Assembly: GCA_030527065.1 (NCBI GenBank)
Contig: JAUNBO010000001.1
Location: 1-26,237, forward strand
Origin: Bacillota bacterium
GTDB taxonomy: Bacteria > Bacillota > Clostridia > Peptostreptococcales > Anaerovoracaceae
Length of the DNA: 26,237 nt
Direction: 5' to 3'
Shown one piece after another: positions 6,778 to 12,029 of this stretch; the first letter of the stretch is position 1; each line of letters begins with the position of its first letter. The notes under the pieces were generated by a model. The model searched no databases and had not been told where the DNA came from. It saw nothing but the letters and a program-made list of their open reading frames with translations. A program made the translations under genes and the position numbers.

Positions 6778-7212
6778 ATGATAGCGGCAGAGCAGTGGTA
6801 TGAATACCAGACCAGTTACCAGAAATATGGCATAGATATGAAGCCTGCGGAGCGGCGGGTGCGGAGCGCAGCTCCGGCCAGGCCGGCGGTCAGGGGCAGA
6901 GACAAGGGGACAGCCATGCTGCTCCTGCTTTTGGTTGGCCTGGTCTGTGTCGCCCTCATCATCATCACCGCCTATTCTGCCAGCATCACTTACAGCATCA
7001 ACCAGATGCTTGCGGAGGAAGAGCAGATCCAGAACGAGATCGCCAATCTGACGGTGGAGCTGAAAACGGCCACCAACATAGAGACCATAGAGGAAAGAGC
7101 TCTGAACGAGCTGGGAATGACCTATGCGGAGATCCATGAGATCGCCTATGTAGGGGGAGAGGACATAAAGGATTTCAGCGTGGCGCTGAAAGCCCGTGCA
7201 TATAATGAGTAG
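6778..7212 (+). CDS. ftsL: Cell division protein FtsL-like (bitopic, coiled coil)
   Basis: Located between rsmH and the class B PBP. Cytoplasmic N-terminus, one TM segment, heptad coiled coil and C-terminal IEERALNELGM. Confidence 0.8.
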   Translation: MIAAEQWYEYQTSYQKYGIDMKPAERRVRSAAPARPAVRGRDKGTAMLLLLLVGLVCVALIIITAYSASITYSINQMLAEEEQIQNEIANLTVELKTATNIETIEERALNELGMTYAEIHEIAYVGGEDIKDFSVALKARAYNE

Positions 7213-7217
7213 CGGGC

Positions 7218-7226
7218 TGATATAAT
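7218..7226 (+). promoter_or_regulatory. Extended -10 sigmaA-type element upstream of the PBP gene
   Basis: TG-A-TATAAT is a perfect TGn-TATAAT. No convincing -35. Confidence 0.55.
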
Positions 7227-7237
7227 ATTTCAGGGGG

Positions 7238-7290
7238 GCGAGGGAATACGCAAGGCGGCGCAGAGAAGGCGCCGATACTGCGTATTTCGC
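7238..7290 (+). other. Extended stem-loop in the ftsL-PBP intergenic region
   Basis: GCGA/TCGC, AATACGCA/TGCGTATT (7245-7252/7279-7286) and CGGCGC/GCGCCG (7256-7261/7269-7274) are nested pairings. Confidence 0.6.
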
Positions 7291-7325
7291 ATATACGGAA
7301 CCCTCTTGCAGAACAGGAGAAAGGG

Positions 7326-9329
7326 ATGAATCCGGCAGGAAACAGGACAAAAAGAAGATTGATGTTTTTCTTTTTCGCAGCGGGGATCCTTTGTGTGGCC
7401 CTGTCCCTCAAGCTGGGGTGGGTGCAGATCGTCATGGGAGAGGAATATTCCAAAGCGGCGGTGGAGCAGCAGACCCGGGATGTGCCGGTGAGCGCCCAGC
7501 GGGGCGTCATTTATGATACCAACGGCGTGGAGCTGGCCATCAGCGCCACCACCCACACCATATGGGCCCGGCCCTCTGAAATAAAAAGCGCCAAAAAAGA
7601 CGAGGAAAACCAGGCCCGGCTCATTATGACGGCCCAGGAGCTGTCGGAAATCCTGTCTCTGGACTATGACGAGACCCTTGCCACCATCAGCCAGGAAAAA
7701 AGCCTGGTGAAGGTGGCCCGGTATGTGGATAAGGAAACGGCCCAGGCCCTGCGGGAGGCGGAGCTGGAAGGGATTTCCATAGTGGAGGACGTGAAGCGCT
7801 ATTATCCCCTGGGGGCCTTTGCATCCCACGTTCTGGGGACCACCACCGACGACAACCAGGGCCTCACGGGCCTGGAGCTGAAATACGATCAATACCTGTC
7901 CGGCGTGTCCGGCCGGTGGATCAAGAGCGCCGACATAGACGGCGATAAGCTGGCCTATGGCGTGGAAAAATACTATCAGGCGGAGGACGGCCTCAGCATC
8001 GTGCTGACGCTGGATTCCGTCATTCAGCACTATGTGGAAAAGGCCATCGCCCAGGTGGCGGAGGACACCTCCGCCAAGCGGGTCCTCTGCATCGTCATGG
8101 ACCCCAAGACCGGGGACATCCTGGCCATGGCCATGACGCCGGAATACGACCCCAACAGTCCGAGAATCCCTCTGGGCGAGGAGGAGCAGAGCTACTTTGA
8201 GACCCTGGACTCCGCTGCGCAGCAGGACTACTGGAACGAGATGTGGCGGAACGCCATGATCAGCGATACCTATGAGCCCGGCAGCACCTTCAAGCTCCTC
8301 ACCACGGCCATCGCCCTGGAAGAGGGGATCACCACCCCCACGGAGACCTTCACCTGCCAGGGGGCCTACCAGGTGGCCGGCGTCACCCTCCGCTGCTGGA
8401 GATATCCCAACGTCCACGGCACGGAAACCCTCACCCAGGCGGTGCAGAACTCCTGTAACCCCGTATTCAACACCCTGGCCCAGAGGATGGGCAAGGAGAC
8501 CATGTATGAATATCTGGAAGCCTTCGGGCTCCAGGAGAAGACCGGGGTGGATTACCCTGGCGAGGGCGGGAACAACCTGCAGAACATAGATTCTGTGGGC
8601 CCGGTGGAGCTGGCCACCATTTCCTATGGCCAGGGCATTGCGGTGACCCCCATCAGCCTGTTGCGGGCCATCTGCGCCCTGGGGAACGACGGCATGCTGA
8701 TGCAGCCCCGGCTGGTGAAGGAGCTGCGGGATTCCGACGGCAACGTGGTGGAGAGCTACGAGCCCGTGGAGGTGCGGCAGGTGGTGTCCAAAGAAACGGC
8801 GGACGAAATGTGCCTGATCATGGAATCCGTGGTCTCCGAGGGCGGCGGCGGCACGGCCAGGGTGATGGGCTACCGGGTAGGGGGCAAGACAGGGACCGCC
8901 AACAAGGTGGAGGACGGCGCTTACGGCGACGGCGTGTATGCGTCTTTCCTGGGGATGGCCCCCATGGACGATCCCCAGGTGGCGGTGCTGGTGGTGGTAG
9001 ACGAGCCCCAGGGAGTGAAGTACGGCAGCCAGACGGCGGCTCCCGGCGCTAAGTTGATATTGGAGGATACCTTGCGCTATCTGAACATAGAGCCTTCCTA
9101 TACCGAAGAGGAGCTGGAGGCTCTGAACAGCGACAAGGTGGCGGTGCCTTCGGTGGCGGGGGAGAATTTCAGCGAGGCCATAGGCATCCTGGGCGGCGTG
9201 TCCCTGCAATACGTGGTGTCGCCGGCTCTGGATCTGGATTCGGTGGAGGACTTCACCGTGGTGGATCAGTATCCCCCGGCGGGAGAAACGGTATCAAAGA
9301 ATTCCACCGTATATTTGTATAGGGAATAA
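7326..9329 (+). CDS. spoVD: Class B penicillin-binding protein SpoVD/FtsI (transpeptidase) with C-terminal PASTA-like domain
   Basis: N-terminal TM segment, RGVIYDTNG and RYYPLG dimerisation-domain motifs, SxxK (EPGSTFK), SxN (NSCN), KTG (GGKTGTA). SpoVD versus FtsI role cannot be decided from sequence alone. Confidence 0.88.
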   Translation: MNPAGNRTKRRLMFFFFAAGILCVALSLKLGWVQIVMGEEYSKAAVEQQTRDVPVSAQRGVIYDTNGVELAISATTHTIWARPSEIKSAKKDEENQARLIMTAQELSEILSLDYDETLATISQEKSLVKVARYVDKETAQALREAELEGISIVEDVKRYYPLGAFASHVLGTTTDDNQGLTGLELKYDQYLSGVSGRWIKSADIDGDKLAYGVEKYYQAEDGLSIVLTLDSVIQHYVEKAIAQVAEDTSAKRVLCIVMDPKTGDILAMAMTPEYDPNSPRIPLGEEEQSYFETLDSAAQQDYWNEMWRNAMISDTYEPGSTFKLLTTAIALEEGITTPTETFTCQGAYQVAGVTLRCWRYPNVHGTETLTQAVQNSCNPVFNTLAQRMGKETMYEYLEAFGLQEKTGVDYPGEGGNNLQNIDSVGPVELATISYGQGIAVTPISLLRAICALGNDGMLMQPRLVKELRDSDGNVVESYEPVEVRQVVSKETADEMCLIMESVVSEGGGGTARVMGYRVGGKTGTANKVEDGAYGDGVYASFLGMAPMDDPQVAVLVVVDEPQGVKYGSQTAAPGAKLILEDTLRYLNIEPSYTEEELEALNSDKVAVPSVAGENFSEAIGILGGVSLQYVVSPALDLDSVEDFTVVDQYPPAGETVSKNSTVYLYRE

Positions 9330-9346
9330 GCTGTTGTTCCCTTTTT
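9321..9346 (+). terminator. Terminator-like hairpin overlapping the PBP stop codon
   Basis: AGGGAATAA-GCTG-TTGTTCCCT (9 bp, one G-U) followed by TTTT. Confidence 0.5.
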
Positions 9347-9387
9347 CCGGGAGCAGGAGCGCTCCGGGAGAAAGGGAGGACAAAGCC

Positions 9388-10644
9388 ATGAACGAAAGGG
9401 AAGCGGAAAGGCGCAGGCGCACATCGGAGGCCGCCGCCCGTTTCTGGGGGTATCCGTCCAGAGACATGACGGTGTTCGGCGTCACCGGCACCAACGGAAA
9501 GACCACGGTAAGCTATTTCCTGAAAAGCATCCTGGAGGAAGCCCGGGGTCCCTGCGGCCTGCTGGGGACCATAGAATACCGCTTCGGGGACCAGGCAGAG
9601 AGGGCCCGGCTCACCACGCCGGATTCCATAGAATTGCAGCGATGGCTGGCCCGGATGAAGGACAGGGGCATGAGGCAGTGCGTCATGGAGGTTTCCTCCC
9701 ATGCCCTGGCCCTGGAAAGGGTGGCCCACGTGGATATCAGCTACGGGATATTCACGAATCTGAGCAGGGACCATCTGGATTTTCACCAGGATACAGAGGA
9801 ATATTACCAGACGAAGAAGCGGCTGTTCCATATGGTGAAGAAGGCCTCCGTCATAAATATTGACGATGATGGCGGCAGACGCTTGCACAAAGAGCTGAGA
9901 GAGAGTAAAATAGTAGCGTTGTCCTGCTCCCTGGAGGATGAAGAAGCGGATTATTTCGGAGAGGGAGCGGAGAGCGGGTCCCGGGGATCCCGCTTTTTGC
10001 TGAGAAGGCAGGGGGAGGCTCTGGGGGAAATGACGACGGCTCTGCCGGGAAGCTACAACGCTTCCAACGCCTTGATGGCGGCGGCCTGCGCCCTGGAGGC
10101 GGGGGTCTCCTTCCGGGAGGCGGCGGCAGGGGCCGCAGGCCTGAGAGGGGTGCCGGGCCGGCTGGAGCCGGTGGAAAACTCCCTGGGGGCGAAGGTCTAT
10201 GTGGACTTTGCCCACACTCCCGACGCCCTGGAAAAGGTCCTGACGGCTCTGCGGGAGCTGAACGAAGGGCGCCTGCTCTGCGTCTTTGGCTGCGGAGGGG
10301 ACCGGGACCGGTCCAAACGGCGGGAAATGGGCCGTGTGGCAGGCCGCCTCTGCGATTTCTGCGTGGTCACCGACGACAATCCCAGGACCGAAGCGCCGGA
10401 GCAGATCGCCGGAGAGGCGGCGGCGGGCCTTGCGGAAACGGGCACGGCCTATGAGGTGGTCCACGACAGAAGGGAAGCCATCCGCAGGGCGATGAAGGAA
10501 TGCCGGCGGGGAGACGTCCTGCTTATAGCGGGAAAGGGCCACGAGGAATATCAGATCATCGGAAAGGAAAAACGCCCTTTCAGCGACAGAGGGACGGTCC
10601 TGGAGCTGCTGAAGGAAAGCGGGAAGGAAGCATGGAAAAGCTGA
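9388..10644 (+). CDS. murE: UDP-MurNAc-L-Ala-D-Glu--meso-diaminopimelate ligase MurE, lacking the N-terminal domain (418 aa)
   Basis: GVTGTNGKTT, TTPD, MEVSSH, FTNLSRDHLDFH, VDFAHTPDAL, FGCGGDRD, DNPR (meso-DAP type) and AGKGHE are present. SD GGAGG 8 nt before ATG 9388. The FWGYP motif is at residues 19-23 rather than near residue 95. Confidence 0.9.
   Translation: MNEREAERRRRTSEAAARFWGYPSRDMTVFGVTGTNGKTTVSYFLKSILEEARGPCGLLGTIEYRFGDQAERARLTTPDSIELQRWLARMKDRGMRQCVMEVSSHALALERVAHVDISYGIFTNLSRDHLDFHQDTEEYYQTKKRLFHMVKKASVINIDDDGGRRLHKELRESKIVALSCSLEDEEADYFGEGAESGSRGSRFLLRRQGEALGEMTTALPGSYNASNALMAAACALEAGVSFREAAAGAAGLRGVPGRLEPVENSLGAKVYVDFAHTPDALEKVLTALRELNEGRLLCVFGCGGDRDRSKRREMGRVAGRLCDFCVVTDDNPRTEAPEQIAGEAAAGLAETGTAYEVVHDRREAIRRAMKECRRGDVLLIAGKGHEEYQIIGKEKRPFSDRGTVLELLKESGKEAWKS
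9883..9911 (+). promoter_or_regulatory. Candidate internal sigmaA promoter within murE
   Basis: TTGCAC, 17 nt, TAAAAT in a locally AT-rich patch. Confidence 0.4.
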
Positions 10645-12029
10645 CGATAAGAGAGATAGAAAAAGCCGTGGGCGGCGCCCTTCTGTTCGGAGACCCGGAG
10701 GGAGCGGTGGACAGCGTGGCTTCGGATTCCAGAGAGGTTTTGCCGGGCGGGCTTTTTGCGGCCATCCCCGGAGAGCGGGTGGACGGCCACGATTTCATTG
10801 CCGCCGCCGCTGCCGCAGGCTGCGCCGCCGCCTTAGTGTCCAGAGAGGAATGGAAGGATAAGGAGAGGGCCCGGCAGGCGGGCCTGGCCGCCATTCTGAC
10901 CGAAGATACCGTGGCGGCCCTTCAGAGGCTGGCGGCCTGGTATCTGGATCGCTTTTCTCTGGTGAAGGTGGGGGTTACCGGGAGCACCGGAAAGACCACC
11001 ACCAAGGAAATGCTCTACCATATCCTCTCCCGCCGCTACCGCACCGTCAGGAATCCGGGAAACCTCAACAGCCCCGTGGGCCTCTCCCGTTCCATTTTCC
11101 AGATAGAGCGGGATACGGAGGCGGCGGTGTTCGAAATGGGCATGGACCACCTGGGGGAGATCCGTTCCCTGGCGGCCATGGTCCGGCCTCACGCGGCGGT
11201 CATCACCAACGTGGGCCTGTCCCACATCGGCCAGCTGGGAAGCCGGGAAAACCTGCTGAAAGCAAAGCTGGAAATCACGGAGCTCCTGGGAGCAGAGGAT
11301 GTTCTGGCGGTGAACTGGGACAACGACCTTCTCTCCGCCGTTTCCTATCCGGGCCCTTATCATCTGGTGAAAGTGGGACAGGAAGGGCCGGATCTGCGGA
11401 TCGAAGACATAGAGGACCACGGCGAGGACGGCCTGTCCTTCACCCTGCGGACAGAGAAGGAACAGGCTTCCTTCCGTCTGGGGATCCCGGGGCGGCACAA
11501 TGCCTGGAACTGCGCCCTGGCGGCGGCGGCGGGCCTGGCCTGCGGCGTTTCTCTGGAGGAAGCCGCTTTGGGGCTGCAGGAGCTGGAGTCCACGGACAAG
11601 AGGCTGCATATCATAAAGGCCGGCGGAATAAAGATAATTGACGACAGCTACAACGCCAGCCCGGATTCCGTGAAGGCGGCGCTGAACGTGCTTCTGACGG
11701 TAAAGGCCCGGCGGAAGGTGGCGGTGCTGGCGGACATGTTTGAGCTGGGCCCGGAAACGGACCGGCTCCACTATCAGACAGGAAGGTACGCCGGGGGCTG
11801 TGCGGACCTTGTCCTTGCCGTGGGGACCCAGGGGCGTTTCATTGCCGGGGGGGCCAAGGACGCCTGCGGCGCCCTGGTCCGGCATTTTGAGACCCGGCAG
11901 GAGCTGGAAGAGGAAATAAAGGGATTGGTGAAAGAAGGGGACGCTGTGCTGGTGAAGGGGTCCCGGGGGATGGCCATGGACCGCATCGTAAAAATTCTGG
12001 AAGGAAGCATGGAAGGCCATGGATTATAA
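10632..12029 (+). CDS. murF: UDP-MurNAc-tripeptide--D-Ala-D-Ala ligase MurF
   Basis: DSREV and ERVDGHDF N-domain motifs, GVTGSTGKTTTKE, AVFEMGM, IIDDSYNASP, VLVKGSRG. ATG 10632 overlaps the murE end by 13 nt. Confidence 0.95.
   Translation: MEKLTIREIEKAVGGALLFGDPEGAVDSVASDSREVLPGGLFAAIPGERVDGHDFIAAAAAAGCAAALVSREEWKDKERARQAGLAAILTEDTVAALQRLAAWYLDRFSLVKVGVTGSTGKTTTKEMLYHILSRRYRTVRNPGNLNSPVGLSRSIFQIERDTEAAVFEMGMDHLGEIRSLAAMVRPHAAVITNVGLSHIGQLGSRENLLKAKLEITELLGAEDVLAVNWDNDLLSAVSYPGPYHLVKVGQEGPDLRIEDIEDHGEDGLSFTLRTEKEQASFRLGIPGRHNAWNCALAAAAGLACGVSLEEAALGLQELESTDKRLHIIKAGGIKIIDDSYNASPDSVKAALNVLLTVKARRKVAVLADMFELGPETDRLHYQTGRYAGGCADLVLAVGTQGRFIAGGAKDACGALVRHFETRQELEEEIKGLVKEGDAVLVKGSRGMAMDRIVKILEGSMEGHGL

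Follow-up and report, generated by a model that had tools for sequence, protein, structure and literature searches.

The window analysed here, a stretch of 26,237 nucleotides that forms contig C140 of an 89%-complete MAG (G000) from the clostridial family Anaerovoracaceae, encodes a MurE ligase that lacks the UDP-binding domain 1 and retains domains 2 and 3 intact. The same short form is conserved in relatives and co-occurs with a second, full-length MurE and with the sporulation protein SpoIVA. We lean towards the view that this protein is a functional, sporulation-linked and probably cortex-specific ligase for meso-diaminopimelate (DAP) that operates without the uridine clamp.

The short murE gene (9388..10644, plus strand) encodes a DAP-type Mur ligase of 418 amino acids. 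Its ATG at 9388 is preceded, eight nucleotides upstream, by a GGGAGG Shine-Dalgarno sequence (9374-9379), consistent with the well-spaced ribosome-binding site described in an earlier note on this DNA. A Pfam scan of the 418-aa protein matched Mur_ligase_M (residues 32-235) and Mur_ligase_C (PF02875, residues 257-384) and did not find PF01225, as that note had anticipated for a MurE without its N-terminal domain. The protein scored 457.6 bits against NF001126, the NCBIfam equivalog model for DAP-type MurE (cut-off 373), and 442 bits against TIGR01085 (cut-off 257.3). Since the NF001126 alignment begins at profile position 85 of 486, approximately 77 N-terminal residues, corresponding to domain 1, are absent, in good agreement with the 75 or so first estimated. 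The space upstream is indeed too small to encode them, because the preceding PBP gene ends at 9329 and leaves a spacer of 58 nt. The neighbouring MurF (10632..12029, plus strand) is full length and, as had been stated, keeps its own N-domain (PF01225). No protein identical to the short MurE was found in an exact-protein look-up.

The catalytic and DAP-specific motifs TGTNGKT, DHLDFH, DDNPRTE, and GKGHEEYQ are all present, as the earlier note had reported. In an alignment of 45 short and full-length sequences, T33-T39 and K143 are invariant, as are D330, N331, P332, R333, and E386 of the DNPR and GKGHE motifs; K143 corresponds to the carbamylated lysine of known MurE. In MurE, meso-DAP binding involves the DNPR motif together with the glutamate of GKGHE (PMC3829189). 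The N-terminal 24 residues correspond to the last helix of domain 1, which ends in FYG-x-PS in full-length MurE, and AlphaFold2 modelled this helix confidently. The model as a whole reached a mean pLDDT of 94.2 and a pTM of 0.92, and over domains 2 and 3 it superimposed on E. coli MurE (1E8C) with a TM score of 0.89 and an rmsd of 2.2 A, and on solved MurE structures with TM scores of 0.85-0.89. These data confirm that the protein is a MurE without domain 1 and with intact domains 2 and 3. It shares with canonical DAP-type MurE (E. coli 1E8C, M. tuberculosis 2WTZ) domains 2 and 3, the P-loop, the carbamylated-lysine position K143, the DNPR/GKGHE motifs, and a dcw position between the PBP gene and murF. 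It differs from them in lacking the UDP/uridine-binding domain 1 of about 77-100 residues, in never being the sole MurE of a high-quality genome, and in being tied to sporulation genes. Plant PAP11, a component of the plastid RNA polymerase, was among the structural matches and likewise has a MurE body in a role other than housekeeping wall synthesis; however, PAP11 carries N-terminal extensions and is a structural subunit, whereas the short MurE keeps its catalytic residues.

The gene lies in a standard dcw cluster with the order mraZ, rsmH, ftsL, a SpoVD-like class B PBP, murE, murF, mraY, murD, spoVE/ftsW, murG, murA, ftsQ, ftsZ, and pheST. The PBP gene (7326..9329, plus strand), whose product has a PASTA domain and matches SpoVD with 613 bits, below the cut-off of 688, precedes every short MurE examined, a conserved arrangement. 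The 58-nt spacer between the two genes (9330..9387, plus strand) contains, in addition to the Shine-Dalgarno sequence, an RNA hairpin (9338-9377), the 3' arm of which overlaps part of GGGAGG. Folding of positions 9300-9420 gave an MFE of -44 kcal/mol (z -3.4), and none of 200 shuffled sequences was equally stable. As no T-run follows, the hairpin is not a classic terminator; it may serve in translation control or stabilise the transcript. A smaller hairpin was observed at the equivalent place in the spacer of a related metagenomic contig (L025). A promoter and terminator scan of positions 7100-10800 revealed nothing beyond shuffled expectation.

Among 5.8 billion protein clusters, the closest protein to the short MurE is P0002, which has 421 amino acids and 63% identity and is encoded on L025, an independent Logan contig whose gene order matches that of the window. 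There, a 667-aa PBP is followed directly by the short MurE with the same junction, and the two proteins have the N-terminal pattern M-[N/D]..EREA.RRRR in common. The closest relative thus has the short start as well, so that the truncation is not a strain-specific deletion, the possibility that a full-length MurE in close relatives would have indicated; truncation and synteny are both shared, as the comparison of orthologues proposed in the earlier note was meant to reveal. A six-frame search with NF001126 in 201 genomes of the Anaerovoracaceae uncovered 13 further genomes from about ten genera, including the cultured isolate Anaerovorax odorimutans DSM 5092, in which the DAP-type MurE matches the model only from position 74-105 onward. 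The short protein of A. odorimutans, 391 amino acids long, carries the NCBI label of an ordinary MurE. At these 13 loci, the PBP stop codon lies 18-96 nt before the P-loop codons, so that the encoded proteins (about 386-408 aa) begin 5-10 residues before TGTNGKT. We refer to forms that start near the P-loop right after the PBP stop as type A and to the window form, which retains the linker helix and comes with a spacer and a Shine-Dalgarno sequence of its own, as type B. At type A loci (L198-L210), the PBP C-terminus is conserved as YLYRE or YLYKE before the stop, and the last PBP codons (AGG GAG or AAG GAG, then TGA) constitute the Shine-Dalgarno sequence of the short MurE, whose gene starts 6-11 nt downstream. 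Because the end of the PBP gene supplies this site, the two type A genes are tightly linked in translation.

Further short forms were detected in metagenomes (P0038, P0186/L218, P0130, P0143, and P0264). Pattern scans of genome and metagenome contigs with the short protein as query picked up distant full-length MurE only, through universal motifs. One candidate, G212:C113 (L201), was rejected as a short form: this DAP-type MurE is not truncated and has a divergent, Ala/Gly-rich N-terminus of 146 residues, a low-complexity segment in the place of a recognisable domain 1, and may represent an intermediate or degenerate state.

In a tree of the MurE core, 12 type A sequences form one clade with a support of 99, with the A. 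odorimutans pair beside it, and the window protein and P0002 fall as a pair among full-length sequences. This tree needs two changes, whereas its well-supported branches alone force one, and an AU test with an earlier set of four sequences did not reject a single short clade (p = 0.31). The amino-acid composition of the window pair is deviant. Since the endpoints of the truncations differ, two events are favoured, and an independent origin of types A and B is likely, though not proven, on this phylogenetic evidence.

A search of the window genome for a second full-length murE, which the earlier note had recommended, was successful. This MurE, encoded on G000:C111, has 504 amino acids, is 30% identical to the short MurE and carries EDPG in place of the DNPR of DAP enzymes; among NCBIfam models it matches the Lys-type NF010628 best, at a score below the cut-off. 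Of the 201 family genomes, 122 contain an orthologue, and in 81 it is the sole MurE, so that this Lys-like protein is a housekeeping MurE. In relatives without DAP-type MurE, including G001 from the same genus, the PBP gene is followed directly by murF. Among the possibilities put forward earlier, a cortex-specific DAP paralogue beside a full-length vegetative MurE is therefore the best supported, given the second MurE and the co-occurrence of the DAP-type enzyme with SpoIVA described below; the assumption that the other copy would also be a DAP enzyme did not hold, as the C111 copy is Lys-like and carries EDPG. The C111 murE gene (L002 1456-4151, minus strand) overlaps by 4 nt with a gene for a 394-aa ATP-grasp-like protein that has only weak family matches (PF15632, E 8.5e-4) and could be a side-chain or cross-bridge ligase. 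No such gene pair was observed at the A. odorimutans orthologue (L195).

Using NF001126 above its cut-off as the marker of DAP-type MurE and TIGR02836 as that of SpoIVA, we cross-tabulated the 201 family genomes. SpoIVA was found in 37 of 41 genomes (90%) with both DAP-type and Lys-like MurE, in 4 of 81 (5%) with only the Lys-like enzyme, and in 13 of 56 (23%) with only the DAP-type enzyme, counts that refer to related, non-independent genomes. In one of the four SpoIVA-positive genomes with Lys-like MurE only (G085), a DAP-type MurE is cut off by a contig end. Within-genus contrasts (g1, g9, g11, g34, g37, g115) agree in all six cases between DAP-type MurE and SpoIVA, with none in the opposite direction. 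Genomes with the short form contain SpoIVA in 13 of 14 cases and Lys-like MurE in 12 of 14; the two that lack the latter are only 67% and 73% complete, and all short-form genomes that are at least 90% complete also carry Lys-like MurE. The exception with respect to SpoIVA is G171, which retains the short MurE and in which SpoIVA was not detected. G171 also has two tandem copies of Lys-like MurE (G171:C16:13586-16622).

We read this distribution as an indication that, beside a Lys-like MurE, the DAP-type MurE tends to be kept only in lineages with sporulation genes, and that in a sizeable part of these lineages it has shed domain 1. The association with SpoIVA could in part reflect joint loss during genome reduction. 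Moreover, A. odorimutans has been described as non-spore-forming (PMC11362086), so that SpoIVA marks sporulation genes rather than observed spores. The window genome possesses Spo0A, SpoIVA, lysA, and dapF. SpoVAD (TIGR02845) was not found in this 89%-complete assembly, and the best CwlD-like match reached 195 bits, below the cut-off of 221.6; part of the sporulation genes may be missing or may not have been assembled. Three other genomes (G003, G009, G017) have a full-length DAP-type MurE and LysA and no DapF match across the whole genome, which suggests that they obtain meso-DAP by another route, e.g., a DAP dehydrogenase.

A comparable dual system was described by Tipper and co-workers, who in the 1970s are reported to have found that Lysinibacillus (Bacillus) sphaericus builds its vegetative wall with L-Lys and its spore cortex with meso-DAP. 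Like that organism, the window genome has two MurE enzymes of different third-residue type (DNPR in the short protein, EDPG in the C111 protein), and its DAP enzyme would be linked to sporulation, as suggested by the co-occurrence with SpoIVA (37/41 vs 4/81) and the presence of Spo0A. Unlike in L. sphaericus, the DAP enzyme of the window genome and of at least 13 relatives lacks domain 1, the hosts are Clostridia, and the DAP cortex is a prediction.

We infer that the short MurE would be catalytically active and DAP-specific, adding meso-DAP in an ATP-dependent reaction to the D-Glu of a MurNAc-L-Ala-D-Glu acceptor. Housekeeping tripeptide synthesis would be left to the full-length Lys-like MurE encoded elsewhere, and the short enzyme would most likely supply DAP-containing precursors for the peptidoglycan of the spore cortex or the germ cell wall. 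Its acceptor probably remains UDP-MurNAc-L-Ala-D-Glu, which would be bound by the domain 2 pocket alone. In S. aureus MurE, domain 1 holds only the uridine nucleoside and most substrate contacts are made by domain 2 (PMC3829189), so that a MurE without domain 1 could still bind the UDP-MurNAc-dipeptide, probably more weakly. This weakening, which the loss of the uridine clamp should cause, is also a point against our reading.

An unlikely alternative, in line with the non-UDP or lipid-linked substrate proposed in the earlier note, is that the short MurE adds meso-DAP to a non-nucleotide acceptor, such as a lipid-linked MurNAc-dipeptide or a free or recycled muropeptide, which would amount to a new step of cortex or wall synthesis. 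MurT, the only Mur-type ligase known to be naturally devoid of domain 1, lacks it because its substrate is lipid II, where a domain that binds UDP would collide with the membrane (PMC6113224). A changed acceptor would also fit the clean removal of domain 1 at the domain boundary, probably at least twice. The clearest change common to the short groups, at the TTPES motif that is invariant elsewhere (TTPDS in the window protein, NTTPG in type A), would fit too, although we read it as probable relaxation at a position that formerly depended on domain 1. However, MurT differs in its DUF1727 C-domain, a frequent zinc ribbon and its dependence on a GatD partner, and its reaction is an amidation, not the addition of an amino acid, whereas the short MurE has an ordinary Mur_ligase_C domain (PF02875) with DAP motifs and lies between the PBP gene and murF, with no GatD-like partner adjoining. 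Furthermore, such a route would confront MraY and MurF with unusual intermediates, and domain 2 keeps nearly all residues that are conserved among MurE enzymes with UDP substrates. Full-text literature searches for a MurE without its N-domain yielded only MurT.

That the short MurE borrows a UDP-binding domain through a complex with MurF, the Lys-like MurE or another Mur enzyme is, in our judgement, improbable. MurE-MurF complexes and fusions exist (PMC10214165), the murF start overlaps the stop of the short murE by 13 nt, and a full-length MurE accompanies the short one in every genome that is at least 90% complete. However, no gene for a stand-alone N-domain was found in the genome: a PF01225 search matched only MurC and MurF, and tblastn with the N-domains of 57 full-length MurE matched only the N-domains of MurF and the paralogue, weak matches on C220 and C137 being spurious frames. 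The suggestion of the earlier note that MurF complements the short protein in trans thus gained no support. Structure prediction of the short MurE together with MurF gave no confident contacts (ipSAE 0.00), a score that is not evidence against a complex. A 979-aa double ligase (P0121) does not connect a short form with a partner, as it has N-domains on both halves; it had been considered as a short form fused to a partner and was rejected, since it consists of two complete ligases in tandem. P0121 and the 664-aa P0124, both with two complete MurE-type ligase bodies in tandem, were the top matches of the representative search.

We consider it similarly hard to credit that the short MurE is an eroding remnant or a non-catalytic protein left over after the Lys-like MurE made the DAP-type enzyme redundant. 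Such a relic would be in keeping with the complete loss of DAP-type MurE in many relatives, including the same-genus G001, with the somewhat longer branches of the short clades, and with G171, which lacks detectable SpoIVA and has the longest branch of its pair (0.68 vs 0.42). The long branch of G171 may result from relaxation after the loss of sporulation. The substitution patterns speak against it. Between the window and L025, a high-GC pair, the short MurE is 63% identical with a dN of 0.30, a dS of 0.81 and an omega of about 0.37-0.38, and the PBP is 77% identical with an NG86 dN of 0.165, a dS of 0.81 and an omega of 0.20. The ratio of MurE-core to PBP identity is 0.79 for this pair, within the range of full-length pairs (0.74-0.89), so that the faster rate of MurE is normal in the family. 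For dN(MurE core)/dN(PBP), six type A pairs gave values of 1.4-2.1, the window pair gave 1.9 and three full-length pairs gave 1.85-2.0; omega is 0.13-0.19 for pairs with measurable dS. Of the 116 columns with at least 90% conservation among 62 full-length DAP-type MurE, 109 (94%) are retained in the window protein, the P-loop, K143, DNPR, and GKGHE among them. Despite identities of 43-71%, the reading frames have stayed intact in at least 14 species, with well-placed ribosome-binding sites and a dN/dS well below 1, and a frame that stays open and motif-perfect over such divergence is not a neutral pseudogene, in accordance with the earlier impression that the gene is not decaying. Judged from these comparisons, the short MurE is kept by selection in at least 14 related species, under a constraint equal to that on full-length orthologues.

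An assembly or gene-calling artefact, as might be suspected in a fragmented MAG of 227 contigs, is extremely improbable, because the identical junction occurs in the independent assembly L025, analogous junctions occur in one isolate genome and 12 other genomes, and the frame 5' of the start codon contains no N-domain sequence.

In MurC-F, which are antibiotic targets, domain 1 is seen as the module for substrate recognition. A MurE that naturally lacks it and is kept by selection in many genera offers a direct test of how much of the UDP moiety catalysis requires, and as one carrier, A. odorimutans DSM 5092, is in culture, the question is testable now. The short MurE may reveal a low-affinity or an altered-acceptor mode of Mur ligases. 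If the acceptor were not UDP-linked, this would represent a hitherto unknown way in which peptidoglycan chemistry changes from vegetative wall to cortex during spore formation. More generally, the pattern points to many anaerobic Clostridia, apparently Anaerovoracaceae with gut and oral lineages among them, having two chemically different peptidoglycans, a Lys-like vegetative wall and a DAP cortex, a dual state that would be readable from genomes by the presence of two MurE types and SpoIVA.
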